DNA of 64,000 nucleotides from Acidovorax sp. (GTDB lineage Bacteria > Pseudomonadota > Gammaproteobacteria > Burkholderiales > Burkholderiaceae_C), in assembly GCF_027492855.1 (NCBI RefSeq), contig NZ_JAPUDY010000067.1, forward strand, positions 1,541 to 65,540, given 5' to 3'. Shown piece by piece: positions 2,380 through 55,515 of the stretch; positions within the stretch are counted from its first letter, which is position 1; each line of letters starts with the position of its first letter. Under the pieces are notes generated by a model, which did no database searches, was not told the DNA's origin, and saw nothing but the letters and a program-made list of their open reading frames with translations. A program made the translations under genes and the position numbers.

Positions 2380-2597
2380 GCCTTTGCATTGCCCGTCGGG
2401 CGTCGGCCAGACCATGGAGCGCAAAGCGCAGAGCCACGCACGCCCCCATGGCCGAACCAACACATTCCGTTACGGGCCATTATTAAAGAAAAACAGCACC
2501 ATGGCTGACACCTGCCTGGATACCCTTGCGCTTGCCTGCACCCCACCGGAGCCATCTGAACGGGATAAATGGCGCTCGCCCCCTTGGATAAACTGCC

Positions 2598-2654
2598 AAA
2601 TCAGGCCCTATCGCTTTATCAGAAAGCGCAAATAGCTATCAAATAGTGAGCAAT
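2598..2654 (+). repeat. R1 double-hairpin repeat, copy A
   Basis: aaatcaggccctatcgctttatcagaaagcgcaaatagctatcaaatagtgagcaatc. It abuts the stop codon of the scfR-like gene. Confidence 0.8.
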
Positions 2655-4127
2655 CTATAAAAGCCGTTGTGGATTCGCCACCGGGTACGGCGCCAGCGTG
2701 CTGCGCCGCTCGTCCACCTCCAGCGCCCGCCCCACGGGTGGGAAGGCGCGCTGCGGGCAACTGGTGCGCTCGCACACCTTGCAGCCCATGCCGATGGGCA
2801 CGGCGGCGGCCGGGTCGGCCAGGTTCAGGCCCTTGGCATACACCCAGCGCGGGGCGTGTTCGATGTCGCAGCCCAGCGCCACCGCGTGCAGCTTGCCCGG
2901 TGCACCCCAGGCGCCGCCGCCGTGCTGCACGGTGCGCGCCACCCACAGGTAGGTGCGCCCGTCGGGCATGCGGGCGAGCTGCGTGGCGATGCGGCCCGGC
3001 TGGGCGAAGGCCTCGTACACGTTCCACAGCGGGCAGGTGCCGCCGATGCGCGAAAAGTGGAAATGTGTGGCCGACTGGCGCTTGGAGATGTTGCCCGCCC
3101 GGTCCACGCGGATGAAGATGAACGGAATGCCACGCGCCTGCGGCCGCTGCAGCATGGACAGCCGGTGGCACACCGCCTCGAAACCCACACCAAAGCGCTG
3201 CACCAGGCGCTCGATGTCGTAGCCCTCCTCCTCGGCGGCATGCAAAAAGGCCGAATACGGCATGAGCAGCGCCCCCGCGAAGTAGTTGGCCAGGCCGATG
3301 CGCGCGAGCTGCCGCGCCTCGGGGCTCGACAGGCGCGCATCCTGCGCCAGGCGCTGCAGCACGGGCTCCATCTCCAAAAACGCCAGCTGCGTCGCCATGT
3401 GGAAGTTGCGCTGCCCGCCCTCCAGCCGGTCAGACAGGTACAACACCCCCGAAGCCGCGTCGAACAAACGCAGCGTGCCGCTGTGCAGCACCGGCGCCTC
3501 GGGCCCCGGCGTGACCACGCGCACGCCGTGCTGCTGCTCCAGGCGCTGCTGCAGCACGTGGTCGGCGCGGCGCGGCTCCAGGCCCCACTGCGCGGCGCAG
3601 CGCTCGGCGGCGGCATCGAGCTCGCCCATGTGGTTGTGGTGGGCGAAGAAATAGTCACGCACCTCCTCGTAGGCCATGGGCGGTGGTGCCGGGGCGGCGG
3701 TGCCCTGCTGCCCCGCGCGCTCGTCATCCCAGGGCGCGGCCAGCGCATCCAGCCGCTCCAGCGCCTGCCGGTAGCGCCCGTGCATGCCGATCAGCGTGCG
3801 GGCCACGGCGGGCATGCTGGCGGCCAGTTCGCGGATTTCGGCCAGCGACACCTGCTCCTGCCCCGTGCCGCCTGGCGGCTGGTCGGCCAGCACGTCGTTC
3901 AGGCCCGCGATCAGGCGCGCTTCCTCGTCGTCGGAAAAGCGCTGCACGTCCACACCCAGCGCGGCGCTGATCTTGAGCAGCACCGACACCGTGAGCGGGC
4001 GCTGGTTCTGCTCGATCTGGTTCAGGTAGCTGGCCGACAGGCCCAGCGTGCGCGCCAGCGCCACCTGCGTGAGGCCGCGCTCCTCGCGCAGGCGGCGCAG
4101 TTGCACGCCCATAAAGGTTTTGCGCAT
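2655..4127 (-). CDS. Short-chain fatty acyl-CoA regulator (ScfR/RamB/mycobacterial PrpR type): XRE HTH plus ImmA-like and Cys-cluster C-terminal domain
   Basis: 490-aa ORF with an N-terminal HTH ([26 protein letters not shown]) and a C-terminal CKVCERTSC motif. It is divergent from prpC. Confidence 0.8.
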
Positions 4128-4298: not shown

Positions 4299-5462
4299 AT
4301 GACCGAAACCGCCACCCCAGCCGCCACCGCCTTCAAGGCCAAAAAATCCGTTGCGCTGTCGGGCGTGACCGCAGGCAACACGGCCCTGTGCACCGTGGGC
4401 CGCACGGGCAACGACCTGCACTACCGGGGCTACGACATCCTGGACATGGCCGAGGTCTGCGAGTTCGAGGAAATCGCCCACCTGCTGGTGCATGGCAAGC
4501 TGCCCACGCGCCCCGAGCTCAAGGCCTACAAGGCCCGGCTCAAGGCCCTGCGTGGCCTGCCCCTGTCGGTGAAACAGGCGCTGGAGCAACTGCCCGCCGC
4601 CAGCCACCCCATGGACGTGATGCGCACCGGCGTCTCGGCCCTGGGCTGCGCACTGCCCGAAAAGGACGACCACAACCTGCCCGGAGCGCGCGACATTGCC
4701 GATCGGCTCATGGCCTCGCTCGGCTCCATGCTGCTGTACTGGCACCACTGGGCCAGCTCGGGCCGCCGCATCGAGGTGGAAACCCAGGACGACTCCATCG
4801 GCGCGCACTTTTTGCACCTGCTGCACGGCACGCCGCCCAGCGCCGCCTGGGAGCGCGCCATGCACACCTCGCTTAACCTGTATGCCGAGCACGAGTTCAA
4901 CGCCTCCACCTTCACCGCCCGCGTGGTGGCGGGCACGGGCAGCGATGTGTATTCAGCCGTCACCGGCGCCATCGGCGCGCTGCGCGGCCCCAAGCATGGC
5001 GGCGCCAACGAGGTGGCTTTCGAGATCCAGAAACGCTACGACAGCCCCGATGAGGCCGAGGTCGACATCCGCCGCCGCGTCGAGGCCAAGGAGGTTGTGA
5101 TCGGCTTCGGCCACCCGGTCTATACCGTGAGCGACCCGCGCAATGTGGTCATCAAGGGGGTGGCCAAGCAACTGTCCCATGACGCCGGATCGACCAAGAT
5201 GTATGACATTGCCGAGCGGTTGGAGACAGTGATGTGGGAGGTGAAAAAGATGTTTCCCAACCTCGACTGGTTCAGCGCCGTGAGCTACCACATGATGGGC
5301 GTACCCACCGCCATGTTCACGCCGCTGTTCGTCATCGCACGCACCAGCGGCTGGGCCGCGCACATCATCGAGCAGCGGCAGGACAACAAGATCATCCGCC
5401 CCAGCGCCCACTACACCGGGCCGGACGATCTGGCGTTCGTGCCCATCGACGACCGCCGGTAA
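4299..5462 (+). CDS. prpC: 2-methylcitrate synthase
   Basis: In-frame ATG at 4299 inside an artefactual 931-aa [50 protein letters not shown].. is citrate synthase family, 387 aa, and sits in a prp cluster. Confidence 0.9.
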
Positions 5463-5488
5463 ATACTTCGACGCCTCTGCCCCACGCC

Positions 5489-8107
5489 ATGAATATCAAA
5501 TACCGCAAGAACCTGCCCGGCACAGCGCTCGACTACTTCGACGCCCGCGAGGCCGTTGACGCGCTGCAGCCCGGCGCCTGGGCCACCCTGCCCTACACCG
5601 CCCGCGTGCACGCCGAAAACATCGTGCGCCGCGCCGACCCGGCCATCATGGCCGAGTGCCTCATGCAACTGATCGAGCGCAAGCGCGAGCGCGACTTTCC
5701 GTGGTTTCCGGCCCGCGTGGCCTGCCACGACATCCTGGGCCAGACGGCGCTGGTGGACCTGGCCGGCCTGCGCGACGCCATCGCGGCGGCGGGCGGCGAC
5801 CCGGCCCAGGTGAACCCTGTCGTGCCCGTGCAGCTCATCGTGGACCACTCGCTGGCCGTGGAGTGCGGCGGCTTCGAGCCCGACGCCTTCGCCAAGAACC
5901 GCACGATTGAAGACCGCCGCAACGAGGACCGCTTTCACTTCATCGAATGGACGAAGAAGGCGTTTGCCAACGTGGACGTGATCCCGGCGGGCAACGGGAT
6001 CATGCACCAGATCAACCTGGAGAAGATGTCGCCGGTCGTGCAGGTGCAGGGCGGCGTGGCCTACCCCGACACCTGCGTGGGCACCGACAGCCACACGCCC
6101 CATGTGGACGCTTTGGGCGTGATCGCCATCGGCGTGGGCGGCCTGGAGGCCGAGAACGTGATGCTGGGCCGCGCCTCGTGGATGCGCCTGCCCGAGACCG
6201 TGGGCGTGCAGCTCACCGGCCAGCGGCAGGACGGCGTTACCGCCACCGACGTGGTGCTGGCGCTGACCGAGTTCCTGCGCAAGTCCAAGGTGGTGGGCGC
6301 CTACCTGGAGTTTTACGGCGAAGGTGCCGCCAAGCTCACCATCGGCGACCGCGCCACCATCTCGAACATGGCGCCCGAGTACGGCGCCACCGCTGCGATG
6401 TTCAGCATCGACGAGCAGACGCTCGCCTACCTCACGCTGACCGGCCGCGAGGCCAGCCAGGTCCAACTGGTCGAAACCTATGCGAAAACCGCAGGCTTGT
6501 GGTCCAGCACCCTCCAAGGCGCCGTTTACGAGCGCCAGCTCACGTTCGACCTGTCCGGCGTGGTGCGCAACCTGGCCGGCCCCTCCAACCCACACGCCCG
6601 CGTGGCCACCAGCGATCTGGCCGCCAAGGGCATTGCCGCACCGTGGGCCATGCCAAGCGCGCACGAAGGCACCATGCCCGATGGCGCCGTGGTCATCGCC
6701 GCCATCACCAGTTGCACCAACACCAGCAACCCGCGCAACGTGATCGCCGCCGCCCTGCTGGCACGCAATGCCAACCGGCTCGGCCTTGCGCGCAAACCCT
6801 GGGTCAAGACCTCGCTGGCGCCCGGCTCCAAGGCGGTGGAGCTGTATTTGAAGGAAGCGGGCTTGCTGGCCGACCTGGAAACGCTGGGTTTTGGCATCGT
6901 GGCCTTTGCCTGCACCACCTGCAACGGCATGAGCGGTGCGCTGGCCCCCGCCATCCAGCAGGAGATCATCGACCGCGGCCTGTACGCCACCGCCGTGCTC
7001 TCGGGCAACCGCAACTTCGACGGGCGCATCCACCCCTATGCCAGCCAGGCATTCCTGGCCTCGCCGCCGCTGGTGGTGGCCTATGCCATCGCAGGCACCG
7101 TGCGCTTTGACATCGAGAACGACGTGCTGGCGGTGGTGGGCGACCGCGAGATCCGCCTGAAGGACATCTGGCCCAGCGATGCGGAGATCGACGCCGTGGT
7201 GAAGACAGCCGTGAAGCCCGCGCAGTACCGCGCCGTGTATGAGCCCATGTTCGCCATTGCCGCCGACCAGGGCGAGGCGGTGGCGCCGCAGTACGGCTGG
7301 CGCGCACAGTCCACCTACATCCGCCGCCCGCCTTATTGGGACACCGAAGGCGTGGGCGCGCTGGCGGCCAACCCGCGCACCCTGAAGGGCATGCGCCCGC
7401 TGGCCATCCTGCCCGACAACATCACCACCGACCACCTCTCGCCCTCCAACGCCATCCTGGCGGACAGCGCGGCGGGCGAATACCTGGCGAAGATGGGCCT
7501 GCCGGAGGAAGACTTCAACTCCTACGCCACACACCGGGGCGACCATTTGACGGCCATGCGCGCCACCTTTGCCAACCCGCAGTTGGTGAACGAGATGGCC
7601 GTGGTGGATGGCCAGGTCAAAAAAGGCTCGCTCGCCCGCGTGGAGCCCGAGGGCACCGTCATGCGCATGTGGGAGGCGATGGAAACCTACCTCAACCGCC
7701 GCCAGCCGCTGATCATCATCGCGGGCGCCGACTACGGCCAGGGCTCCAGCCGCGACTGGGCCGCCAAGGGCGTGCGCCTGGCGGGCGTGGAGGTGGTGGT
7801 GGCCGAAGGCTTCGAGCGCATCCACCGCACCAACCTCATCGGCATGGGCGTGTTGCCACTGGAGTTTGCGCCCGGCACCAGCCGCCACACGCTGGGGCTT
7901 GATGGCACCGAAACCTTCGACGTGGAGGGGCACCTGCAGCCCCGTGCCACGCTCACGCTGGTAGTGCGCCGCAAGAATGGCGAGGTGGCCAAGGTGCCCA
8001 TGGCCTGCCGCCTCGACACCGCCGAGGAGGTGTCGGTGTACGAAGCCGGCGGCGTGCTGCAACGTTTTGCGCAGGACTTTTTGGCCCAAAACCACAAGCA
8101 AAAATAG
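5489..8107 (+). CDS. acnD: Fe/S-dependent 2-methylisocitrate dehydratase (aconitase family, AcnD type)
   Basis: ATG at 5489 (MNIKYRKNLPGTALDYFDAREAV..), 872 aa. Aconitase motifs are present (GTDSHTP, ITSCTNTSNP, ACTTCNG) and prpF follows directly. Confidence 0.9.
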   Translation: MNIKYRKNLPGTALDYFDAREAVDALQPGAWATLPYTARVHAENIVRRADPAIMAECLMQLIERKRERDFPWFPARVACHDILGQTALVDLAGLRDAIAAAGGDPAQVNPVVPVQLIVDHSLAVECGGFEPDAFAKNRTIEDRRNEDRFHFIEWTKKAFANVDVIPAGNGIMHQINLEKMSPVVQVQGGVAYPDTCVGTDSHTPHVDALGVIAIGVGGLEAENVMLGRASWMRLPETVGVQLTGQRQDGVTATDVVLALTEFLRKSKVVGAYLEFYGEGAAKLTIGDRATISNMAPEYGATAAMFSIDEQTLAYLTLTGREASQVQLVETYAKTAGLWSSTLQGAVYERQLTFDLSGVVRNLAGPSNPHARVATSDLAAKGIAAPWAMPSAHEGTMPDGAVVIAAITSCTNTSNPRNVIAAALLARNANRLGLARKPWVKTSLAPGSKAVELYLKEAGLLADLETLGFGIVAFACTTCNGMSGALAPAIQQEIIDRGLYATAVLSGNRNFDGRIHPYASQAFLASPPLVVAYAIAGTVRFDIENDVLAVVGDREIRLKDIWPSDAEIDAVVKTAVKPAQYRAVYEPMFAIAADQGEAVAPQYGWRAQSTYIRRPPYWDTEGVGALAANPRTLKGMRPLAILPDNITTDHLSPSNAILADSAAGEYLAKMGLPEEDFNSYATHRGDHLTAMRATFANPQLVNEMAVVDGQVKKGSLARVEPEGTVMRMWEAMETYLNRRQPLIIIAGADYGQGSSRDWAAKGVRLAGVEVVVAEGFERIHRTNLIGMGVLPLEFAPGTSRHTLGLDGTETFDVEGHLQPRATLTLVVRRKNGEVAKVPMACRLDTAEEVSVYEAGGVLQRFAQDFLAQNHKQK

Positions 8108-8152
8108 GCTCCAGCGCTTATCTAACAAGCGCAAGCAGCTATCAAATTTGAT
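8101..8152 (+). repeat. R1 repeat, copy B; occupies the entire acnD-prpF spacer and contains the acnD stop codon
   Basis: aaaataggctccagcgcttatctaacaagcgcaagcagctatcaaatttgat, followed directly by the prpF ATG at 8153. Confidence 0.85.
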
Positions 8153-9355
8153 ATGACCACCATGACAAGCCCTGTGGCACCACAGATCAAGATTCCCGCC
8201 ACCTACCTGCGCGGCGGCACCAGCAAAGGCGTGTTCTTCAAGCTGCAAGACCTGCCCGAGCCCGCTCGGCAGCCCGGCGCCGCACGCGACGCCCTGCTCT
8301 TGCGCGTGCTGGGCAGCCCTGACCCGTATGGCAAGCAGATCGACGGCCTGGGCAATGCGTCATCCAGCACCAGCAAGGCCGTGATCCTGAGCCGCAGCAC
8401 GCGGCCGGGGCACGATGTGGACTACCTGTTCGGCCAGGTTGCCATCGACCGGCCCCTGGTGGACTGGAGCGGCAACTGCGGCAACCTCTCGGCGGCCGTG
8501 GGGTCGTGCGCCATCCACATGGGGCTGATCGACGCGGCGCGCATCCCACAACAAGGCCATGTCACCGTGCACATCTGGCAGGCCAACATCGGCAAGACCA
8601 TCGTGGCGCATGTGCCGATTGCCAATGGACAGGTGCAGGAGACGGGCAACTTTGAACTGGACGGCGTGACCTTTGCGGCCGCCGAGGTGGCGCTGGAGTT
8701 CATCGATCCGGCGGACGATGGCGACGACGGCGGCGCCATGTTCCCCACCGGCCGCGTGGTGGACATGCTGGACGTGCCCGGCGTGGGCCACTTTGCCGCC
8801 ACGCTGATCAACGCGGGCATCCCCACTATTTTTCTCAACGCCCAGGACCTCGGCTACACCGGCACCGAGCTGCAGGGCGACATCAACCAAGACCCAGCGG
8901 CGCTGGCGCGCTTCGAGGCCATCCGCGCCCACGGCGCCGTAAAGATGGGCCTCATTGCCGACGTGGCCGAGGCCGCGCAGCGCCAGCACACGCCCAAGAT
9001 CGCCTTCGTGGCCCCGCCCGCCAGCTACATCACATCCAGCGGCAAACCCATAGGGGCGAGCGAGGTGGACCTGCTGGTGCGTGCCCTCTCCATGGGCCAA
9101 CTGCACCACGCGATGATGGGCACGGCGGCCGTGGCCATCGGCACCGCCGCCGCCATCCCCGGCACGCTGGTGCACCTGGCGGCAGGCGGCGGTCAACGCA
9201 GCGCCGTTCGATTTGGCCACCCCTCGGGCACCCTGCGCGTGGGGGCCGAGGCCGCGCTGGTCAACGGCCAATGGCAGGTCACCAAGGCCTTGATGAGCCG
9301 CAGCGCCCGCATCCTCATGGAAGGCTGGGTACGCGTGCCTGCCGATAGTTTTTAA
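8153..9355 (+). CDS. prpF: 2-methylaconitate cis-trans isomerase
   Basis: 400-aa ORF with the PrpF-type N-terminus KIPATYLRGGTSKGVFF, immediately downstream of acnD. Confidence 0.88.
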   Translation: MTTMTSPVAPQIKIPATYLRGGTSKGVFFKLQDLPEPARQPGAARDALLLRVLGSPDPYGKQIDGLGNASSSTSKAVILSRSTRPGHDVDYLFGQVAIDRPLVDWSGNCGNLSAAVGSCAIHMGLIDAARIPQQGHVTVHIWQANIGKTIVAHVPIANGQVQETGNFELDGVTFAAAEVALEFIDPADDGDDGGAMFPTGRVVDMLDVPGVGHFAATLINAGIPTIFLNAQDLGYTGTELQGDINQDPAALARFEAIRAHGAVKMGLIADVAEAAQRQHTPKIAFVAPPASYITSSGKPIGASEVDLLVRALSMGQLHHAMMGTAAVAIGTAAAIPGTLVHLAAGGGQRSAVRFGHPSGTLRVGAEAALVNGQWQVTKALMSRSARILMEGWVRVPADSF

Positions 9356-9416
9356 CAAAAACAGGCTATAGCGCTTGTTCGTCAAGCGCAAGCAGCTATC
9401 AAATAAGTAGCAAATC
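9356..9416 (+). repeat. R1 repeat, copy C; fills the prpF-prpB spacer
   Basis: aaaaacaggctatagcgcttgttcgtcaagcgcaagcagctatcaaataagtagcaaatc, then ATG at 9417. Confidence 0.85.
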
Positions 9417-10277
9417 ATGAACACCAAACAACAACTCAAAGCCCTGGCCCAAGCCCGCCGGGGCGTCATCGTGCCCGGCGCGTTCAACGCCCTGTCCGCC
9501 CGCGTGGTGGCCGACCAGGGTTTTGAAGCCATTTATGTGACCGGCGCGGGCGTCACCAACATGTGGTTCGGCCTGCCCGACCAGGCCTTCATGGGCCTCA
9601 CCGACATCGCCGACCACACGGCCCGCATCCGCGATGCGGTGGAGCTGCCGCTCATCGTCGATGCCGACACGGGCTTTGGCAACGCGCTCAACACCTACCA
9701 CGCCGTGCGCACGCTCGAGCGCGCGGGCGCCGACTGTATCCAGCTTGAAGACCAGGTCAGCCCCAAACGCTGCGGGCACTTCAGCGGCAAAGAGGTGATC
9801 TCCACTGAGGAGATGCTGGGCAAGATCAAGGCGGCGGTGGACGCGCGCCGCGACGCGGGCACCCTCATCCTGGCCCGCACCGATGCCTGCGCCACCCAGG
9901 GCTTTGAGGCCGCCGTGGAGCGCGCGCGGCGCTTTGAAGAGGCGGGCGCCGACATCCTGTTCGTCGAAGCCGTCACCCGCATCGAGGAGATCCGCGCCCT
10001 GCCAAAGCGGCTGGCGGCGCCCCAGCTCATGAACATGGTGATCGGCGGCAAGACCCCTATCACCGGCGCCGAGGAACTCGCCGGTCTGGGCTACGGCCTG
10101 GTGCTGTATGCCAACGCAGCGCTGCAGGGCGCGGTGGCGGGCATGCAAAAGGCGCTCACCGTGCTGCGCGAGCAGCGGCGCATCGACGAAGACCCAGCCC
10201 TGGTCGCCCCCTTTGCCGAACGCCAACGGCTAGTACGCAAGGCCGAATGGGATGCACTGGAGGCCCAATACACCTGA
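9417..10277 (+). CDS. prpB: Methylisocitrate lyase-like enzyme (isocitrate lyase/PEP mutase family)
   Basis: 286 aa with the DADTGFG and KRCGH motifs. It is the last gene of the prp cluster. Confidence 0.75.
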   Translation: MNTKQQLKALAQARRGVIVPGAFNALSARVVADQGFEAIYVTGAGVTNMWFGLPDQAFMGLTDIADHTARIRDAVELPLIVDADTGFGNALNTYHAVRTLERAGADCIQLEDQVSPKRCGHFSGKEVISTEEMLGKIKAAVDARRDAGTLILARTDACATQGFEAAVERARRFEEAGADILFVEAVTRIEEIRALPKRLAAPQLMNMVIGGKTPITGAEELAGLGYGLVLYANAALQGAVAGMQKALTVLREQRRIDEDPALVAPFAERQRLVRKAEWDALEAQYT

Positions 10278-14906: not shown

Positions 14907-14966
14907 CCGTTCACGCTGAGCCTGTCGAAGCGCTGCGCAAGGCTTCGACAGGCTCAGCCCGAACGG
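14907..14966. repeat. R2 GC-rich palindromic repeat, copy a
   Basis: ccgttcacgctgagcctgtcgaagcgctgcgcaaggcttcgacaggctcagcccgaacgg. Confidence 0.85.
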
Positions 14967-15104
14967 TTCTTGTTTATTGAACGCAAACTGGTATGAGCCC
15001 GCGCGCCGGGTGCTAGCGGGACCTCGCCGCCACAGGGTGGATCATGAGTGATAATCCATTCTCAATAACGCATTTCCCAGCTCGGTTCAGCGCAGACAAC
15101 CTCC

Positions 15105-15916: not shown

Positions 15917-16015
15917 ACCCTTCATTTGGAAACACCCGCATGCACACAGGCATGCGGTGTCGTATCGACACCTTCAGTGCTTGAGAAGCACTTGTCTCAG
16001 ACGCCCCTTCCCCAT

Positions 16016-16087
16016 CCGTTCGGGCTGAGCCCGTCGAAGCCAGGGCGCCCTTTGCCCACAGCCCTTCGACGGGCTCAGGGCGAACGG
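16016..16087. repeat. R2 palindromic repeat, copy b
   Basis: ccgttcgggctgagcccgtcgaagccagggcgccctttgcccacagcccttcgacgggctcagggcgaacggg. Confidence 0.85.
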
Positions 16088-16137
16088 GTCTGTCTGCGGC
16101 ATGTAGCGAATCAAGCTTCAGTGAGAAAGAAAGAACC

Positions 16138-17483: not shown

Positions 17484-17543
17484 ACAAAAATGGCTCTAGC
17501 GCTTTATCAACAAGCGCTAGCAGCTATATTATTGATAGCAATC
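17484..17543 (+). repeat. R1 repeat, copy D
   Basis: acaaaaatggctctagcgctttatcaacaagcgctagcagctatattattgatagcaatcc. Both hairpins are perfect (CTAGCGCTT/AAGCGCTAG and GCTAT/ATAGC). Confidence 0.85.
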
Positions 17544-22297: not shown

Positions 22298-24676
22298 ATG
22301 ACGCTCGCCCAGCCCTCCCCCGCCCGCCCCGTGCTCACCCACACCCTGGGCTTTCCCCGCATGGGGGCGCAGCGCGAGCTGAAGTTCGCGCTCGAATCCT
22401 TCTGGCGCGGCGACTTGGGCGCTACCGACTTGCAAGACACCGCCGCCCAACTGCGCCAACAACACTGGCAGGCCCAGGCCGACGCGGGCCTGGGCTTTGT
22501 CACCGTGGGCGACTTCGCGCTGTACGACCATGTGGCCAACCACATCCAGCTACTGGGCTGCGAACCTGCGCGCTTCGCGTTCGACGGCGCCACGCCAGAG
22601 CTGGCGCGCTACTTCGCCATGGCGCGCGGAGTGTCGGCCACGGCCACACACACGGACCTGGGCTGCAGCACGGGCTGCACTGCGACACACACCACGCCGG
22701 GCCAGAGCGCACTGGAAATGACCAAGTGGTTCGACACCAACTACCACTACCTTGTGCCCGAGTTCAGCGCCAGCACGCGGTTCCACCTCGCCAGCGAGCG
22801 CCTGTTCGACGAAGTGGCCGAGGCCCAGGCCCAGGGCCACAAGGCCAAGGCCGTGCTGCTGGGGCCGCTGAGCTTTTTGTGGCTGGGCAAGGCCAAGGAG
22901 GCTGGGTTCGACCGCTTCAGCCTGCTGGCGCAACTGCTGCCGGTGTACGAGGCCGTGCTCGCCCGCCTGAAGGCCCAGGGCGTGGAATGGGTGCAGATCG
23001 ACGAACCCATCCTGGGGCTGGATCTGCCCGACACCTGGCGCCACGCCTTCGAGCCCAGCTACTGGCAACTGGCCCGCAGCGCGCCCCCACTGCTGCTGGC
23101 CACCTACTTCTCGCCCCTGGCCGAAAACCTGCGCCTGGCCTGCCAGCTGCCCGTGGCCGGCCTGCATGTGGATGCCGTGCGCGCCCCGGAGGAACTGGTG
23201 GGCGTGGCCGACTGGCTGCCCTCGCACAAGGTGCTGTCGGTGGGCATCGTCGATGGCCGCAACATCTGGCGCACCGACCTCGATGCCGCCCTGGCCCGCC
23301 TCGCCCCCGTGGTCGCCAAGCACCAGGGCGCGCTGTGGCTGGCGCCCTCATGCTCGCTGCTGCACGTGCCGTTCAGCCTGCAGGCCGAAACACAGCTGGA
23401 TGCCGAGGTGAAATCCTGGCTGGCCTTTGCGGTCGAAAAGCTCGACGAGCTGAGCGTGCTGGCCACCGCCCTGGGCCAGGGCGAGGCCGCCGCAGCCGGT
23501 GCCCTGTTGGCCGCCCGCACCGCTATCGCCGCGCGCCGCAGCAGCCCCCGCGTGCACCGCGCCACCGTGGCCGCGCGCCTGGCAGCCGCAGCGCCGGGGG
23601 CCGACCAGCGCACCAGCGCGTTCCCCGCGCGCCAGCAGGCCCAGCGCGCACGCTTGAAGCTGCCGCTGCTGCCCACCACCACCATCGGCTCGTTCCCGCA
23701 GACCGCCGAGATCCGCGCCGCCCGCGCGGCCTTCAAGCGCGGAGCGCTGGACGCTGCCCACTACGAAGAAAAGATGCGCACCGAAATCGCCCTGGCCGTG
23801 CGCAAGCAGGAAGAGCTTGGCATCGACGTGCTGGTACACGGCGAGGCCGAACGCAACGACATGGTTGAATATTTCGGCGAACAGCTCGACGGGTTTGCCT
23901 TCACCGCCAACGGATGGGTGCAAAGCTACGGCTCGCGCTGCGTGAAGCCGCCCATCATCGTCGGCGACGTGGCCCGCCCCGCGCCCATGACCGTGGCCTG
24001 GACGCGGTACGCGCAAAGCCTGAGCAGCCGCCCCATGAAGGGCATGCTCACCGGCCCCATCACCATCCTGCAGTGGAGCTTTGTGCGCGACGACCAGCCC
24101 CGCGCCACCACCGCCGACCAGATCGCCTGGGCCATCCGCGACGAAGTGTGCGACCTGGAAGCCGCAGGCATCGCCATCATCCAGATCGACGAACCCGCCA
24201 TCCGCGAGGGCCTGCCGCTGCGCCGCGCCGGGTGGAAGAGCTACCTTCAGCGCGCCACACGCGCCTTTCGCATCAGCGCGAGCGGCGTGCGCAACGACAC
24301 GCAGATCCACACCCACATGTGCTACAGCGAGTTCAACGACATCCTGCCCGAGATCGCGGCCATGGACGCTGACGTGATCACCATCGAGACCAGCCGCTCG
24401 GACATGGAGCTGCTGCAGGGCTTTGGCACTTTTCAATACCCCAACGAGATCGGCCCCGGCGTGTACGACATCCACTCGCCCCGCGTGCCCAGCGTGCAGG
24501 AGATGACCGCGCTGCTGCACAAGGCCGCCGAGGTGGTGCCGGTGGAAAACCTCTGGGTCAACCCCGACTGCGGCCTCAAGACCCGAGGCTGGCCCGAGAC
24601 CGAGGCGGCGCTGCGCCACATGGTGCAGGCGGCGCAGGAGGTGCGGGCGCAGTTGGAGGAAGCCGTGATTGCATAG
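22298..24676 (+). CDS. metE: Cobalamin-independent methionine synthase
   Basis: ATG at 22298 ([33 protein letters not shown]), 792 aa, with [12 protein letters not shown] and the C-terminal motifs IQIDEPA and HMCYS. Confidence 0.92.
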
Positions 24677-24713
24677 TCGAATTGGCCGATTTCGCGGACA
24701 CGCGGACAGGACA

Positions 24714-25647: not shown

Positions 25648-25744
25648 CCCGACTGCGGCCTCAAAACCCGAGGCGGCATTGCGCCACATGGTGCAGGCGG
25701 CGCAGGAGGTGCGGGTGCAGTTGGAGGAAGCCGTGAGCGCGTAG
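25648..25744 (+). pseudogene. Displaced duplicate of the metE 3-prime end (remnant)
   Basis: cccgactgcggcctcaaaacccgaggc..cgccacatggtgcaggcggcgcaggaggtgcgggtgcagttggaggaagccgtgagcgcgtag matches metE 24563-24676, apart from a 17-nt gap and a few mismatches. Confidence 0.85.
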
Positions 25745-25746
25745 CC

Positions 25747-25806
25747 AAATGAGCTGCCAGCGCTTTTTCAACAAGCGCTGGCAGCTCTCCTGTTAATAGC
25801 AAACAA
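25747..25806 (+). repeat. R1 repeat, copy E
   Basis: aaatgagctgccagcgctttttcaacaagcgctggcagctctcctgttaatagcaaaca, with a perfect 13-bp stem GCTGCCAGCGCTT/AAGCGCTGGCAGC. Confidence 0.8.
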
Positions 25807-28132: not shown

Positions 28133-28192
28133 AAAAAAATACCACTGGCGCTTATCTACAAAGCGCAAGCAGCTATTAATTGAATAGCAAAA
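28133..28192 (+). repeat. R1 repeat, copy F (in the panE / marR divergent region)
   Basis: aaaaaaataccactggcgcttatctacaaagcgcaagcagctattaattgaatagcaaaa. Confidence 0.85.
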
Positions 28193-30391: not shown

Positions 30392-30451
30392 CCGTTCACG
30401 CTGAGCCAGTCGAAGCGCCGCACCAGGCTTCGACAAGCTCAGCCCGAACGG
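30392..30451. repeat. R2 palindromic repeat, copy c
   Basis: ccgttcacgctgagccagtcgaagcgccgcaccaggcttcgacaagctcagcccgaacgg. Confidence 0.85.
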
Positions 30452-30500
30452 TGGGGGGTAGAAAACCCGAACAACAACACATTCCTGAAAGACCACAGCC

Positions 30501-33470: not shown

Positions 33471-33529
33471 TAAAAATAGCTGCTTTCGCTTATTCAACAA
33501 GCGCAAGCAGCTATGTTTTTAGTAGCAAA
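33471..33529 (+). repeat. R1 repeat, copy G
   Basis: aaaaatagctgctttcgcttattcaacaagcgcaagcagctatgtttttagtagcaaat. The stem AGCTGCTTTCGCTT/AAGCGCAAGCAGCT pairs at 13 of 14 positions. Confidence 0.85.
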
Positions 33530-33568
33530 TACCGCCATCCCTCACGCTGGGACCGCCGCTCCGGGGCC

Positions 33569-37060: not shown

Positions 37061-37198
37061 CCGTTCACGCTGAGCCTGCCTGTCCTGAGCTTCGTCGAAG
37101 GGTCGAAGCGCCGCGCAGGGCTTCGACAGGCTCAGCCCGAACGGCTGGGGGGCGGCTATGCAACTCGTTCACCGTTCCGCCTGAGCTTGTCGAAGGCC
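37061..37198. repeat. R2 repeat, composite copy e (full copy with an internal insertion plus a partial copy)
   Basis: ccgttcacgctgagcctgcctgtcctgagcttcgtcgaagggtcgaagcgccgcgcagggcttcgacaggctcagcccgaacgg, then ..gttcaccgttccgcctgagcttgtcgaagg. Confidence 0.75.
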
Positions 37199-40409: not shown

Positions 40410-40462
40410 GTTTCCAGTCTTTTTGCCTGGCCATGAGCATCCCTCACACACTTTCCCCCAGT

Positions 40463-40535
40463 CCGTTCGGGCTGAGCCTGTCGAAGCCAGGGCGCCCTGT
40501 ACCCACAGCCCTTCGACTGGCTCAGGGCGAACCGG
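40463..40535. repeat. R2 palindromic repeat, copy f
   Basis: ccgttcgggctgagcctgtcgaagccagggcgccctgtacccacagcccttcgactggctcagggcgaaccgg. Confidence 0.85.
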
Positions 40536-40568
40536 TTTCTCAGAGGCAAACACCTCGTTATTCAAGCC

Positions 40569-40622
40569 TTTTTGGCCTCTAGCGCTTATCCATCAAGCGC
40601 AAGCAGCTATCAAATTCATACC
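40569..40622 (+). repeat. R1 repeat, copy H (33 bp after R2 copy f)
   Basis: tttttggcctctagcgcttatccatcaagcgcaagcagctatcaaattcatacc. Confidence 0.85.
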
Positions 40623-40655
40623 ATTTCTTTCACCACTACCTCTGGAGACAGCAGC

Positions 40656-44083: not shown

Positions 44084-44141
44084 GCCCCAAACTTCAAGCC
44101 CAAAGTGCCTGACGATGTATCTATCTCAGAGTCCGATCCAA

Positions 44142-44215
44142 CCGTTCGGGCTGAGCCTGTCGAAGCCAGGGCTTGCCGCGTGGGTGCAAGGCTTCGACAG
44201 GCTCAGCCCGAACGG
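44142..44215. repeat. R2 palindromic repeat, copy g
   Basis: ccgttcgggctgagcctgtcgaagccagggcttgccgcgtgggtgcaaggcttcgacaggctcagcccgaacgg. Confidence 0.85.
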
Positions 44216-44252
44216 TTGGAGGAGAAGCATCTGAGGCATGCACATAATCAGG

Positions 44253-44311
44253 AAAAAATGCCGCTACCGCTTGTCCATCAAGCGCAAAAAGCTATCAAAA
44301 CAGTAGCATAT
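44253..44311 (+). repeat. R1 repeat, copy I (37 bp after R2 copy g)
   Basis: aaaaaatgccgctaccgcttgtccatcaagcgcaaaaagctatcaaaacagtagcatat. Confidence 0.8.
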
Positions 44312-46927: not shown

Positions 46928-46986
46928 ATTTGCTATATTTTTGATAGCTTATAGCGCTTGATACACAAGCGCTACCTGCCAAAAAG
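46928..46986 (-). repeat. R1 repeat, copy J (inverted orientation)
   Basis: atttgctatatttttgatagcttatagcgcttgatacacaagcgctacctgccaaaaag. Confidence 0.85.
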
Positions 46987-47878: not shown

Positions 47879-49213
47879 TCACAGCAGCCGTGGCTGGGCG
47901 GCCACCGTCACGTCCACCGCCCCATCGGACAGCGTGGCCCGCAGTGCGGCGCCGACCGGGGCCTGGCGCACGCTGGTCACGGCCTGGCCGCCTGCGTCGG
48001 TAAGCAGCGCATAACCGCGCTGCAGCACCAGGCGGGGGTCCAGCAACTCCAGCCGCAAGGCCGCGCGGTCGAGCCGCTCGGCCTGTTGGGCCACGCTGCG
48101 CTGCAGCTTGATAGGTAAATCAGCCGCCAGCGCTTGTTGTGATTGGATCAAACGCTGCATTTTTAATAGCACACCATGGCGCATGCGCTGGGCCAGGCGG
48201 GCCAGTTGCATCTGCTCGCGCGCGACCAGCCCCGAGGGGCGGCCCAGGCGCGCGGCGGCCTGGTCAAGCCGCTGGTGGCGGGCGTCGAGCTGGCGCTGCA
48301 CGCCGTCGCCCATGCGCCCCGCCAGCAGGCCCAGCGCGCCCAGCCACACGTCGCGCGGCTGGGCCACCAGTTCGGCCGCCGCCGTGGGCGTGGGCGCGCG
48401 CAGGTCGGCGCAGAAGTCGGCGATGGTGAAGTCGGTCTCGTGCCCCACGCCGCTGATGAGCGGCACCGGGCTTTGCACGATGGTGCGGGCCAGTTGCTCG
48501 TCGTTGAAGGCCCACAGGTCTTCGATGGAGCCGCCGCCGCGCACCAGCAGGATGATGTCGATGGGTGGATTCCGGGTCAAATCAGCCCCTGGCGCTTGTC
48601 CTGCCTGCGCAAGCAGATACAGTTTTGATAGCGCGGCGACGATGGACGGCGGCGCGGCCACGCCCTGCACCTGCGCGGGCACCAGCACCACGGGGATGTG
48701 TGGCACCCGGCGGCGCAGCGCCGTGACCACGTCATGTAACGCCGCCGCGCCGGGCGAGGTGACCAGGCCGATGCCACGCGGCTGCAGTGGCAGCGGGCGC
48801 TTGCGGGCGGTGTCGAACAGGCCTTCGGCGTCGAGCTGGGCCTTCAGGCGCAGGAACTGCTCGAACAACGCGCCCTGCCCGGCCCGCTGCATGTTTTCGA
48901 CGATGAACTGCAGATCGCCGCGCGCCTCGTACACCCCAAGGCGGCCGCGCAACTCCACCAATTCACCATCGCGCGGCGAAAAGTCAAGCAGGCTGGCCGC
49001 GCGGCGGAACATGGCGCAGCGCAGCTGGCCGTTGGCGTCCTTGATCGAGAAGTAGCAATGCCCGCTGGACGCGCGCGAGAAGCCCGTGATCTCGCCGCGC
49101 ACCGCTACAGGGTTGAATCGGGCCTCCAGGGCATCAGCAATGGCGCGGCACAGCGCGCCAACTTCCCACACACGCGGCGCCACGCCTGGGTTTGTGCGCT
49201 CAAACATCAGCAA
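47879..49213 (-). CDS. xseA: Exodeoxyribonuclease VII large subunit, carrying two in-frame R1-derived segments
   Basis: 444 aa with an OB-fold N-terminus, then RGGGSIEDLWAFNDE, GVGHETDFTIADFCADLRAPTPTAAAE and a coiled-coil tail. Confidence 0.9.
   Translation of the reverse strand: MLMFERTNPGVAPRVWEVGALCRAIADALEARFNPVAVRGEITGFSRASSGHCYFSIKDANGQLRCAMFRRAASLLDFSPRDGELVELRGRLGVYEARGDLQFIVENMQRAGQGALFEQFLRLKAQLDAEGLFDTARKRPLPLQPRGIGLVTSPGAAALHDVVTALRRRVPHIPVVLVPAQVQGVAAPPSIVAALSKLYLLAQAGQAPGADLTRNPPIDIILLVRGGGSIEDLWAFNDEQLARTIVQSPVPLISGVGHETDFTIADFCADLRAPTPTAAAELVAQPRDVWLGALGLLAGRMGDGVQRQLDARHQRLDQAAARLGRPSGLVAREQMQLARLAQRMRHGVLLKMQRLIQSQQALAADLPIKLQRSVAQQAERLDRAALRLELLDPRLVLQRGYALLTDAGGQAVTSVRQAPVGAALRATLSDGAVDVTVAAQPRLL
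48117..48172 (+). repeat. R1-like segment K inside xseA (in frame; encodes VLLKMQRLIQSQQALAADLP)
   Basis: aaatcagccgccagcgcttgttgtgattggatcaaacgctgcatttttaatagcac. Confidence 0.6.
48579..48632 (+). repeat. R1 copy L inside xseA (in frame; encodes ALSKLYLLAQAGQAPGADL)
   Basis: aaatcagcccctggcgcttgtcctgcctgcgcaagcagatacagttttgatagc. Confidence 0.75.
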
Positions 49214-50753: not shown

Positions 50754-51824
50754 ATGCCCCAAACACCCGCCCCCCGAGCCACGGCCGAGCGGGGCCTGCA
50801 AACCATCTGGCAGACGCGCGGCCCGGCCGCCTGGGCGCTGTGGCCGGTGTCGCTGCTGTATCGCGCCCTGGTGGCGCTGCGCCGGGGGCTGTACCGCACC
50901 GGCCTGCTGCGCGCCGAGCACCCCGGCCGCCCCGTCATCGTGGTGGGCAATGTGATCGCGGGGGGCGCGGGCAAGACCCCGGTGGTCATCGCACTTGTGC
51001 AGCACCTAAAGGCCCGTGGGCTGCGCGCAGGTGTGGTCTCGCGTGGCTACGGCCGCAGCGGCCAGGACTGCCGCGCGGTGCTGCCCGACAGCCTGGCCAG
51101 CGAAGTGGGCGATGAACCCTTGCTGATCGCCCGCAGCCTGGGCGGTGGCAACGCCGTGCCGGTCTTCGTGGCCCCGCGCCGCATCACCGCAGCCCGCGCG
51201 CTGCTGGCGGCCCACCCCGACACCGACGTGATCGTCTGCGACGACGGCTTGCAGCACCTGGCGCTGCGGCGCGACCTGGAAATCTGCATCTTCAACGACG
51301 AGGGCATTGGCAACGGCTTTCTGCTGCCCGCAGGCCCCCTGCGCGAACCCTGGCCGCGTCGCGTGGATTTTGTGCTGCATGCGGGCAACGCCGCCCCCCA
51401 GGAAACGCAGGCCCCGGCGTTTGGCCTGCAGCGCCGCCTGGCGCCCCATGCACGGCGCTCCGACGGCAGCCAGGTGCCATTGGCCAGCCTGCGCGGCCAG
51501 CCCCTGCACGCACTGGCCGCCGTGGCGCGGCCCGGCGACTTCTTTGCCATGCTGCAGGCCGAGGGCCTGACGTTCGCGCGCATCGAGGCCTTGCCGGATC
51601 ACTATGATTTTGATAACTGGCAGCGCTTATCAGACAAGCGCCATCCCTTGATTTGCACCGAAAAGGATGCCGTCAAGCTGTGGTCCCGGCACCCTGACGC
51701 GCTGGCCGTGCCGCTGGCAGTGCACGTCGATCCCCTCTTTTTTGACGCCCTGGATACCCGGCTGTCGGCGCTGCTGCCCACGGCGGCGGCCCCCAAGCCG
51801 CCGCTATCATCCCCTTTTGCCTGA
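50754..51824 (+). CDS. lpxK: Tetraacyldisaccharide 4-prime-kinase
   Basis: 356 aa with [13 protein letters not shown] (P-loop), SRGYGR and TEKDAVKL. Confidence 0.9.
51607..51655 (+). repeat. R1 core hairpin M inside lpxK (in frame; encodes [16 protein letters not shown])
   Basis: attttgataactggcagcgcttatcagacaagcgccatcccttgatttg. The core agcgcttatcagacaagcgc is nearly identical to intergenic copy B. Confidence 0.6.
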
Positions 51825-53007: not shown

Positions 53008-53679
<672 letters not shown>

Positions 53680-53731
53680 TGTACGGGGGCTGACCACTGA
53701 TCAGCCCCATCGACGGCCTCAATTCGATGCG

Positions 53732-53760
53732 GCGACGCCCCACAAGGGCGTCGCTTTTTT
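53732..53760 (+). terminator. Rho-independent terminator after adk
   Basis: gcgacgccc-cacaa-gggcgtcgctttttt. Confidence 0.8.
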
Positions 53761-53797
53761 CATGGTGCAGCAGCGCCCTGCGCCGCACAGGTCTCTG

Positions 53798-54757
53798 TCA
53801 GCCCGCGCGCAGCAAATCAAGCACCAGCGCCACCCGCGCCTTCACCGGCGACAACCCCCGCGAGTCTGGGAACACATCTCCCGGCTTGGGCAGCACCTGC
53901 CCCTCGGCGCAGCGGGTGGCACGCACCACCTGCACCCCCGCATCCTGCGCGCGCAGCAAAGCGGCCTCCAAGGCGTGGTGAATGGTTCCGTTGCCGGTGC
54001 AGGCCACCACCAGGCCTTGCACCCCGTCGCGCACCAGGGCATCCACCCCTCGGCCCGTGGCCCCGGCATGGCTGACAACCACTTCGACCCAGGGCCATTC
54101 GCCAGCATTTGCTATATTTTCAATAGCACCTTGCGATTGACCAACCTGCGCTAGAGGCCAATTTTCTACCAAACGCACCCGCCCCTCCTCCACCCATCCC
54201 AAAGGCCCGGCATCGCCCGAATGAAAGGCATGCACTCGGTAGGGATGCGCTTTTTGCACGTAACGCGCACCGTGGATTTCCCCGGCGGCCACCAGCATCA
54301 CTCCCGTGGCGCCGGGGGCCTGCACCACGGCCACGGCATCAAGCAGGTTCTGCGGACCATCGGGCGTGAGGGCCGTGGCGGGGCGCATGGCGCAGGTCAG
54401 CACCACGGGCTTGCGGGCATCCAGCACCTCGTGCAAAAACCATGCGGTTTCTTCCAGGGTATCGGTGCCGTGCGTGATGACCAGGCCCCGCACCTCAGGG
54501 TCGTTCAAATGGTGCGCGCAGCGCAAGGCCAAGGCCCGCCACACCGCGCAGTCCATGTCCTTGCTGTCGACCTGGGCCACCTGCTCCGCCACCAGTGCGC
54601 CACCCGCCATGGCTTGCAACCCCGGAACGGCAGCCAACAGCTGTGCCACCCCCACCTGGGCAGCGGTGTAGCCAATGTTGTCCCCCGCCTGCGCCGAGGT
54701 GCCTGCAATCGTGCCCCCGGTGCCTAAAACCACAATTTTTTGCCCACTCACTTGCAT
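53798..54757 (-). CDS. L-asparaginase (no signal peptide) carrying an in-frame R1 copy
   Basis: 319 aa with VVLGTGGTIAG and ITHGTDTLEETAWFL. Confidence 0.85.
   Translation of the reverse strand: MQVSGQKIVVLGTGGTIAGTSAQAGDNIGYTAAQVGVAQLLAAVPGLQAMAGGALVAEQVAQVDSKDMDCAVWRALALRCAHHLNDPEVRGLVITHGTDTLEETAWFLHEVLDARKPVVLTCAMRPATALTPDGPQNLLDAVAVVQAPGATGVMLVAAGEIHGARYVQKAHPYRVHAFHSGDAGPLGWVEEGRVRLVENWPLAQVGQSQGAIENIANAGEWPWVEVVVSHAGATGRGVDALVRDGVQGLVVACTGNGTIHHALEAALLRAQDAGVQVVRATRCAEGQVLPKPGDVFPDSRGLSPVKARVALVLDLLRAG
54107..54165 (-). repeat. R1 copy N inside the asparaginase gene (in frame; encodes ENWPLAQVGQSQGAIENIANA)
   Basis: atttgctatattttcaatagcaccttgcgattgaccaacctgcgctagaggccaatttt. Confidence 0.75.
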
Positions 54758-54785
54758 ACTCCGAAAAACTGGTGAAAAATACAGT

Positions 54786-54805
54786 TACTGGATTAAAAAA
54801 CAGTT
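54786..54805. promoter_or_regulatory. SOS box (LexA operator) upstream of lexA
   Basis: taCTGgattaaaaaaCAGtt gives CTG-N10-CAG spacing with an AT-rich centre. It ends 36 bp upstream of the lexA ATG. Confidence 0.6.
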
Positions 54806-54840
54806 ATTCATCACTGTAACCGCCGCCACCGGAAACCACC

Positions 54841-55515
54841 ATGCTCGACAACCCCAAACTCACCGCCCGCCAGCAGCAGATTCTGGACCTCATCCAGACC
54901 GCCATCGCGCGCACCGGCGCCCCTCCAACCCGCGCAGAAATCGCGGCCGAGCTGGGGTTCAAGTCGGCCAACGCCGCAGAAGAGCACCTGCAGGCCCTGG
55001 CCCGCAAAGGTGTGATCGAACTGGTCAGCGGCACGTCGCGCGGTATTCGCCTGCGTGGCGACACAGTGCGCTCCATCAATGCAGCGCGTGGCAACCAGTT
55101 CAGCCTGCCCATTCCGGGCCTGTCGCAGCTGGTTCTGCCCTTGGTGGGGCGCGTGGCGGCGGGTTCTCCCATTCTCGCGCAGGAGCATGTAGACCAGACC
55201 TACAGTGTGGAAAACAGCCTTTTCCAGCACAAGCCCGACTACCTGCTCAAGGTGCGCGGCATGTCCATGCGCGACGCCGGCATCATGGATGGCGACCTGC
55301 TCGCCGTGCAGTCCACGCGCGAGGCACGCAACGGCCAGATCATCGTGGCCCGCCTGGGTGACGATGTCACCGTCAAGCGCCTGCGCCGCACCGCCACCGC
55401 CATCGAGCTGCTGCCCGAAAACCCCGACTACCCGGTGATCGTGGTGCAGCCCGGCGAACCCTTCGAAATCGAAGGCCTGGCGGTCGGCCTCATCCGCAAC
55501 ACCATGCTGATGTAG
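54841..55515 (+). CDS. lexA: LexA repressor
   Basis: 224 aa, [34 protein letters not shown], with the cleavage and peptidase motifs (VAAGSP, GMSM). Confidence 0.93.

Follow-up and report, generated by a model that had tools for sequence, protein, structure and literature searches.

How does a 59-nt, AT-rich block that resembles an intergenic repeat come to be read as protein in the middle of a GC-rich L-asparaginase gene, and is it now anything other than coding sequence? The block lies at positions 54107..54165 (minus strand) of a 64,000-nt stretch of an Acidovorax sp. contig (NZ_JAPUDY010000067.1; the whole stretch is referred to here as the window), where it stands in sense orientation within the gene for a 319-residue, type II-like L-asparaginase with no obvious signal peptide (53798..54757, minus strand). 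It is a copy of a dispersed repeat that we call R1, and it encodes the linker between the two domains of the enzyme. The block is probably what is left of a single ancient R1 element, a molecular fossil that is now translated as that linker.

The R1 block and its host gene

R1, a repeat about 59 nt long, was identified by repeat finding; besides the block, the window holds 12 copies of it, 10 on the plus strand and 2 on the minus strand. The family was defined from the window's own copies, and an nhmmer profile was built on these 12 with the in-gene block excluded; the 12 score 41-56 bits against their own profile. The consensus is approximately AAAAAnGGCnCTAGCGCTT-N7-AAGCGCnAGCAGCTAT-N7-ATAGCAAAT and holds two palindromes, of which hairpin 1 is the long one and hairpin 2 (GCTAT/ATAGC) the short one. 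The GC content of R1 is about 43-45%, and all copies, the in-gene one included, align without gaps.

Read along the minus strand from 54165 to 54107, the 59 nt of the block are aaaattggcctctagcgcaggttggtcaatcgcaaggtgctattgaaaatatagcaaat, which translate without a stop as (E)NWPLAQVGQSQGAIENIAN(A), residues 198-218, the R1-derived segment of the linker being residues 198-217 (ENWPLAQVGQSQGAIENIAN). A TAG within the block is stepped past by the frame CCT CTA GCG; among the 12 other copies this same frame is free of stops in 5, the second forward frame in 9 and the third in none. The GC content drops to 0.43 in the block from about 0.68 on both sides. The block matches the profile of the other 12 copies along model positions 2-58, with a score of 16.8 bits (E = 3e-4), and it is the sole full-length match to the family in the window besides the training copies. 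Among 5000 dinucleotide shuffles of the block the highest score is 7.4 bits, and among 5000 back-translations of its peptide that follow the local codon usage it is 10.4 bits, so that neither control attains the score of the block; this rules out both composition and the constraint of the encoded peptide as explanations. The block is homologous to R1, and an earlier note made from the DNA letters, which had placed an in-frame, stop-free R1 copy at these coordinates and in this frame, is borne out by the sequence, the open reading frame (ORF) and the profile match. The closest single copy, at 73% identity, is the one at 46928..46982.

The same note had also matched the block over both hairpins to copy H, an intergenic R1 copy 30 nt upstream of a plus-strand gene (40568..40626, plus strand, 52.6 bits), and here one qualification is needed. 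Hairpin 2 (GCTAT-tgaaaat-ATAGC) is intact at 54111..54127, where it fits the family pattern exactly, AAAT following it, and it is present in the predicted fold; the corresponding stem of copy H includes a mismatch. Hairpin 1 is represented by a remnant at 54131..54153 (TAGCGCAG-gttggtc-AATCGCAA) that is recognized from the family alignment, but its stem is degenerate, departing from the pattern TAGCGCTT-N7-AAGCGCTA, and it is absent from the minimum-energy fold. This pattern is intact in the orthologous genes of loci L009 and L011, and is also found in L012, and so the degenerate stem in the window is a result of decay, not a sign of another origin. Decay of the window copy is moderate, with hairpin 1 lost and hairpin 2 kept.

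The host protein contains both asparaginase domains, Pfam PF00710 (N-terminal, residues 7-199, 8.4e-54) and PF17763 (C-terminal, residues 224-313, 4.1e-16), and its top PDB matches are type II L-asparaginases (best 3NXK, 1.7e-50), whose overall fold it shares, along with an inter-domain linker some 20 residues long. The TGGTIAG and HGTDT motifs and the conserved Lys are present (T13-G19, H96-T100 and K169), which we take to be catalytic residues from established knowledge of EcAII; they are invariant in the alignment of Acidovorax-type homologues (A1), and several are also invariant in alignment A2. The AlphaFold model made with alignment A2 (pLDDT 94.8, pTM 0.93) superposes on solved asparaginases from Erwinia, Campylobacter, Helicobacter and E. 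coli (including 1HFJ, 3NXK and 3ECA) with TM scores of 0.88-0.92 over about 320 columns; a shallow Acidovorax-only alignment gave a pLDDT of 60.9, with the block below 50, and was not used. In this model residues 197-207 are predicted to form an extended coil (pLDDT ~80) and residues 208-217 (SQGAIENIAN) a helix (pLDDT ~93), the two lying between the strand 193-196 and the first strand of the C-terminal domain, 224-228. The remnant of hairpin 1 encodes coil L202-Q209, and hairpin 2 encodes AIENIA within the predicted helix.

Proposed replacement of native linker DNA and descent of the block

The earlier note had suggested that the 19-20 residues of the block might form an extra loop between the domains, one that could be present in some sister strains and absent from others. 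Orthologue and outgroup lengths, PDB alignments and the superposition of folds rule this out. Measured from GPLG.VEE to WP.VE, the segment holds 44 residues in Acidovorax as against 39-49 in 36 outgroup asparaginases, with one outlier at 30 and another at 58, the outgroup set consisting of 37 asparaginases without R1 at 41-68% identity. In alignments with solved type II asparaginases, no gap in this part is longer than 3 residues. The linker DNA of outgroup loci L025-L028 has a GC content at third codon positions (GC3) of 0.66-0.81, close to that found elsewhere in the gene, and gives no match to the R1 profile; the asparaginase genes of L026 and L028 adjoin lexA, and that of L026 also adjoins adk. 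Many outgroups have a native Trp-Pro pair where the linker begins (as in KNWPV, encoded as AAAAACTGGCCG, of L026), and these native W-P codons resemble the 5' end of R1, AAAAATGGC. R1 sits on the native linker, having replaced an approximately equal length of native coding DNA. Conservation of the block at protein level in asparaginases of unrelated taxa, which the earlier note had named as the finding that would speak against a repeat origin, is not what is seen, as outside Acidovorax it is the position and length of the linker that are conserved and its sequence that is hypervariable. An R1 origin is accordingly upheld, with the element taking the place of linker DNA instead of being added to it.

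Among database homologues, the closest 120 (from Acidovorax, with one from Verminephrobacter, at 78-93% identity) are 308-322 residues long, except for two at 349 and 377, and the block is free of insertions and deletions in all 30 of them that were taken into the alignment. In one Acidovorax homologue, P0053, VRWAC has been duplicated locally, which inserts 5 residues (VVRWA; A1 columns 197-201) directly upstream of the block; the linker tolerates changes of length. Genomic loci were retrieved from 22 distinct species of Acidovorax and Verminephrobacter; the segment from GPLG.VEE to WP.VE comprises exactly 42 codons in every one, and with the window included the position, frame and length of the block are identical in 23/23 in-gene sequences, leaving no presence/absence polymorphism of the kind the earlier note had envisaged. 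Foreign as it may look, the AT-rich island in this gene is neither recently inserted nor an artefact of annotation, nor is it a pseudogene.

Scored with the profile made solely of this window's other R1 copies, the same codons in the orthologues give 39.6 bits in L015, 38.2 in L011, 35.3 in L009, 34.2 in L014, 32.6 in L012, 29.5 in L004 and 22.4 in L016. The block of L011, AAAATTGGCCTCTAGCGCTTGATGGTAAAGCGCTAATAGCTATTGAAAATATAGCAAAT (= NWPLALDGKALIAIENIAN), folds into exactly the two R1 hairpins. On a gene tree made from the flanking protein the high R1 scores are scattered and have decayed sisters (34 bits in L014 vs 2 in L013, 17 in the window vs 4 in L001, 22 in L016 vs 1 in L018), a pattern that fits one ancestral intact copy followed by independent decay; the most basal Acidovorax locus, L020, scores 8.7 bits. 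The in-gene copies have in common a hairpin-1 loop (GATGG.., in the form GATGG/GGT..) that occurs in none of the window's other copies, and this private loop favors vertical descent over repeated conversion from copies elsewhere. Protein identity is 45% in the block versus 81% in the flanks, as expected of a linker. On these sequence comparisons, a single acquisition before the genus radiated, followed by vertical descent and independent decay, would be the simplest reading.

The sequence of events proposed is as follows. A copy of R1, an AT-rich double-hairpin repeat dispersed in Comamonadaceae, would have entered the asparaginase coding sequence before the sampled Acidovorax and Verminephrobacter lineages radiated, in sense orientation, in a forward frame that can be stop-free (as two of the three can), and exactly at the hypervariable inter-domain linker, where it would have displaced native linker-coding DNA of similar length and left the protein no longer than before. 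The comparisons themselves establish the homology to R1, the orthologous position, the age of the block, the constancy of length and the place in the linker. As to the mechanism, we infer either that the native ...AAxTGGCC... (N-W-P) offered microhomology to the 5' end of R1 and so guided the replacement, or that an insertion was followed by a compensating deletion. The half of the element containing hairpin 1 would then have come to encode the coil 197-207 and the half containing hairpin 2 the helix 208-217 (AIENIAN), and from that time the block would have evolved mostly as weakly constrained coding sequence, decaying separately in each lineage.

Possible residual function and alternative origins

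Several observations weigh against this account of a single replacement followed by decay. The nearest outgroup, L023 (gene at 3001-3990 of its locus; 68% identity), has a linker with 3 extra residues that is itself AT-rich (GC 0.48 vs 0.78 for the GC3 of the gene). This linker carries a GCTATTGAATCGATAG hairpin, and the two hairpins that it contains after an A-run are CCTATC-N8-GATAGG and GCTAT-tgaatcg-ATAG. Against the R1 profile it scores 3.3 bits, which is not significant, despite the visible remnant resembling hairpin 2 and an R1-like architecture, and it may be a much-decayed R1 copy or a related element. No intermediate state was found among the loci compared, and an exact, length-preserving replacement is unusual for a mobile repeat. 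The remaining observations concern the decay. Averaged over 23 orthologues, GC3 is 0.33 in the block as against 0.78 in the rest of the gene, the lowest of any 20-codon stretch. Ancestral A/T third positions are retained at about 0.77 versus a crude neutral expectation of 0.59, and by parsimony, in a comparison that was deliberately conservative, they are retained at 0.865 in the block versus 0.647 in the flanks (Mann-Whitney p = 0.018, n = 10 vs 18). Purely neutral decay is thus maybe not the whole story, and we regard this persistence as weak evidence for constraint.

One way to account for such persistence is that the embedded R1 keeps a role at the level of nucleic acid, which we consider unlikely. 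An AT-rich segment of rare codons, with or without hairpin 2, could slow ribosomes at the boundary between the N- and C-terminal domains and aid co-translational folding, or the block could bind whatever factor recognizes R1 elsewhere or affect mRNA stability, and selection would then preserve the A/T third positions and the GCTAT/ATAGC stem. The low GC3 and the steadiness of A/T third positions relative to the flanks (p = 0.018, as above, and 0.042) are in keeping with this, as is the state of helix 2, which is paired in 90% of cells; the pairing is maintained solely by conservation and G·U pairs. Its T42-A54 pair, both members of which are third codon positions, is kept in 22/23 copies even when Ile is replaced by Gly (GGA) or Val (GTA), and among lineages that retain R1 the synonymous differences are 0-0.23 in the block versus 0.44-0.52 in the flanks. 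These statistics, however, are drawn from 10-17 sites and a crude model, and synonymous change is lowered anyway by the 2-fold degeneracy of many of the block's codons. Covariation is absent from both hairpins among the 23 in-gene copies, all five measures falling within those of shuffled alignments, and the same holds for all measures among the window's 12 other copies. Of the cells of helix 1 only 59% are paired, and this helix has been lost in most lineages, the window included, and hairpin 2 has been lost in the lineages of L002/L003/L008/L022, L019 and L021 with the gene intact. The region 53600-54900 contains no promoter-like site, and its 3 terminator-like sites all lie outside 54107-54165; in the sense orientation the A-run comes before the hairpin. 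We infer that the block has no nucleic-acid function at present. A wider proposition, that R1 has been exapted as a linker while remaining under nucleotide-level selection, as a translational pause or as a binding site of an R1 factor, and that R1 is a recurrent source of linkers and loops in Comamonadaceae proteins, is, taken as a whole, unlikely; 3 of the approximately 15 R1-like copies in the window lie inside genes.

The proposal of a single ancestral R1 copy also has to be set against one in which the block was acquired or refreshed repeatedly, whether by insertion at a hotspot, by gene conversion or by recombinational spread between Acidovorax lineages. The sharp contrast in R1 score between sister loci such as L014 and L013 would be explained by it, as would the nucleotide identity between the window and the L011 clade, which is higher in the block (0.80-0.83) than in the flanks (0.76-0.77). 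It is nevertheless very improbable given the identity of position, frame and length across all 23 sequences, the hairpin-1 loop that is private to the in-gene copies, and the graded series formed by their degrees of decay.

That the block is an AT-rich linker resembling R1 by chance or composition, or that R1 was derived from the gene, is effectively refuted, for although the window copy taken alone scores just 16.8 bits and the N-W-P portion of its match is native sequence, neither set of 5000 controls reaches that score, orthologues reach 39.6 bits with both hairpins intact, outgroup linkers are normal in GC and carry no R1 signal, and R1 exists in many intergenic copies, also on plasmids of Comamonas and Diaphorobacter.

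R1 among known repeats and elsewhere in the window

In-frame insertions of palindromic elements are textbook matter for Rickettsia only and count as a peculiarity of reduced genomes. The elements concerned, RPEs, are small palindromic dispersed repeats of about 100-150 bp that occur both between genes and in frame within unrelated housekeeping genes, where they are translated at positions compatible with the fold (PMC10969869). R1 resembles them in its in-frame presence inside an unrelated housekeeping ORF, which is a shared behavior and not evidence of homology, and no relationship at sequence level is expected. RPEs differ in their greater length, in being confined to Rickettsia and in adding a peptide segment, whereas R1 is about 59 nt long, resides in free-living, high-GC Comamonadaceae and, in the asparaginase gene, makes no net change of length, substituting for the native linker. 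The ERIC and RU-1, RU-2 and RU-3 repeats of enterobacteria are intergenic hairpin repeats with open frames that occasionally give in-frame gene fusions (PMC10969869; PMC2759123). These belong to another family, of 103-168 bp and another host range, and their intragenic copies are mostly recent and strain specific, whereas the in-gene R1 is genus-wide and decayed. R1 behaves like RPEs and intragenic ERIC/RU elements but belongs to neither family. REP and BIME sequences are short imperfect palindromes linked to RAYT transposases, present in many copies in short operon spacers and beside stop codons. R1 likewise consists of short imperfect palindromes in many copies, in operon spacers and near stop codons, but REPs are single hairpins of 20-40 nt that are typically extragenic by definition, and R1 has two hairpins and an A-run.

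A dispersed repeat of Burkholderiales, BRE, has been described from genera including Acidovorax, Verminephrobacter, Polaromonas and Delftia, with a unit of about 75-91 bp and a GC content of about 69% (Hot et al. 2011, PMC3110155). An identity of R1 with BRE was rejected on size and GC, the comparison being about 90 bp and 69% GC against about 59 nt and 43-45% GC. The whole window gives no Rfam match at the gathering score, and no description of R1 was found in the literature when searched by the R1 sequence string or by the topic of repeats in Acidovorax or Comamonadaceae. What distinguishes the in-gene R1 is its small size, its free-living, high-GC host, its genus-wide age and its substitution for an existing linker without added length. 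It offers a clean case of an in-frame repeat in a free-living, high-GC betaproteobacterium, dated before the radiation of the genus and accompanied by a graded series of decay across species. As such it is a natural experiment on the speed with which foreign, AT-rich sequence is ameliorated within a GC-rich gene, and a testable case of whether repeat-derived clusters of rare codons at domain boundaries are functional.

The other R1 copies were placed relative to genes with a crude GC3-based gene caller that missed the asparaginase gene, so that the gene boundaries given here are approximate. Intergenic plus-strand copies, in addition to copy H, lie at 2597..2655 (44.1 bits), 17485..17543 (53.5 bits; the most canonical long hairpin, -20.6 kcal/mol, z = -4.3), 25746..25804 (50.1 bits; a perfect 15-bp stem), 28134..28192 (46.1 bits), 33472..33530 (51.2 bits) and 44253..44311 (47.7 bits), and intergenic minus-strand copies at 46928..46982 (44.0 bits; family D7 of the repeat finding) and 51598..51655 (41.1 bits). 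Two further plus-strand copies, at 8100..8158 (49.0 bits) and 9357..9415 (56.4 bits), each stand in a short spacer between two plus-strand genes and occupy nearly the whole of the spacers separating the called genes 5234-8107, 8153-9355 and 9417-10277. The first of them holds both the stop codon (TAG) of the upstream gene and the start codon (ATG) of the downstream one, and the second is at most 2 nt from each neighboring gene. Copies are found between convergent, divergent and co-oriented genes as well as filling such operon spacers, a placement typical of REP- or MITE-like behavior. Of the 13 strong copies, 10 are on the plus strand, a sample too small to judge; the excess may reflect a bias relative to replication or transcription.

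Outside Acidovorax, R1-like copies that abut gene ends occur on the Comamonas and Diaphorobacter plasmids, and the family is therefore wider than Acidovorax. Intragenic R1 copies under annotated coding sequences of the Comamonas plasmids were considered and rejected, as these copies merely abut the stop codons by 1-2 nt. In a padded alignment examined by eye the palindromes of R1 are internal, and its ends (the A-run and ..GCAAAT) are not inverted repeats of one another; inspection of the same alignment, in which no formal search was made, revealed no evident direct repeats flanking the copies.

The asparaginase gene has lexA as its divergent neighbor (54841-55515, plus strand), and the spacer between them (54758-54840) is AT-rich and contains an SOS-box-like sequence, ACTGTATTTTTCACCAGT, on its minus strand. 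The SOS-regulated promoter space might be common to asparaginase and lexA. The pairing of the two genes is kept in outgroups L023, L026 and L028, and adk-kdsB comes next in L023, L024 and L026.

A second gene of the window in which R1 is found is xseA, for the large subunit of exonuclease VII (Pfam 2.9e-89; ORF 47879..49213, minus strand), which contains two R1-like copies, antisense to the gene and in frame. The stronger one, at 48578..48633 (plus strand, 43.2 bits), encodes ..AALSKLYLLAQAGQAPGADLT.., and the weaker, at about 48108-48170 (E = 0.0075), lies within ..LLKMQRLIQSQQALAADLPIKLQ... Alignment with E. coli XseA (8TXR) shows about 14 additional residues at the first of these sites and about 6 at the second, and judged from this alignment R1 does seem to add length in xseA.

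The window also holds a second, GC-rich palindromic family of about 60-90 nt, CCGTTCGGGCTGAGCC.GTCGAAGCC ... GGCTTCGAC.GGCTCAGCCCGAACGG (D4-D6 and I16 of the repeat finding), with copies at 14907-14967, 16010-16101, 30392-30452, 37085-37145, 40457-40548 and 44138-44220. By size and GC, compared with the published description only, this family (CCGTTCGGGCTGAGCC...GTCGAAGCC) probably corresponds to BRE (PMC3110155). Two of its copies adjoin R1 copies (40457/40568 and 44138/44253). Finally, an 83-nt direct repeat (D8; 24600-24682 and 25668-25750) has units with 90% identity, 1068 nt apart, each ending in a stop codon, the second standing directly before the R1 copy at 25746, and it looks like duplicated 3' ends of genes.

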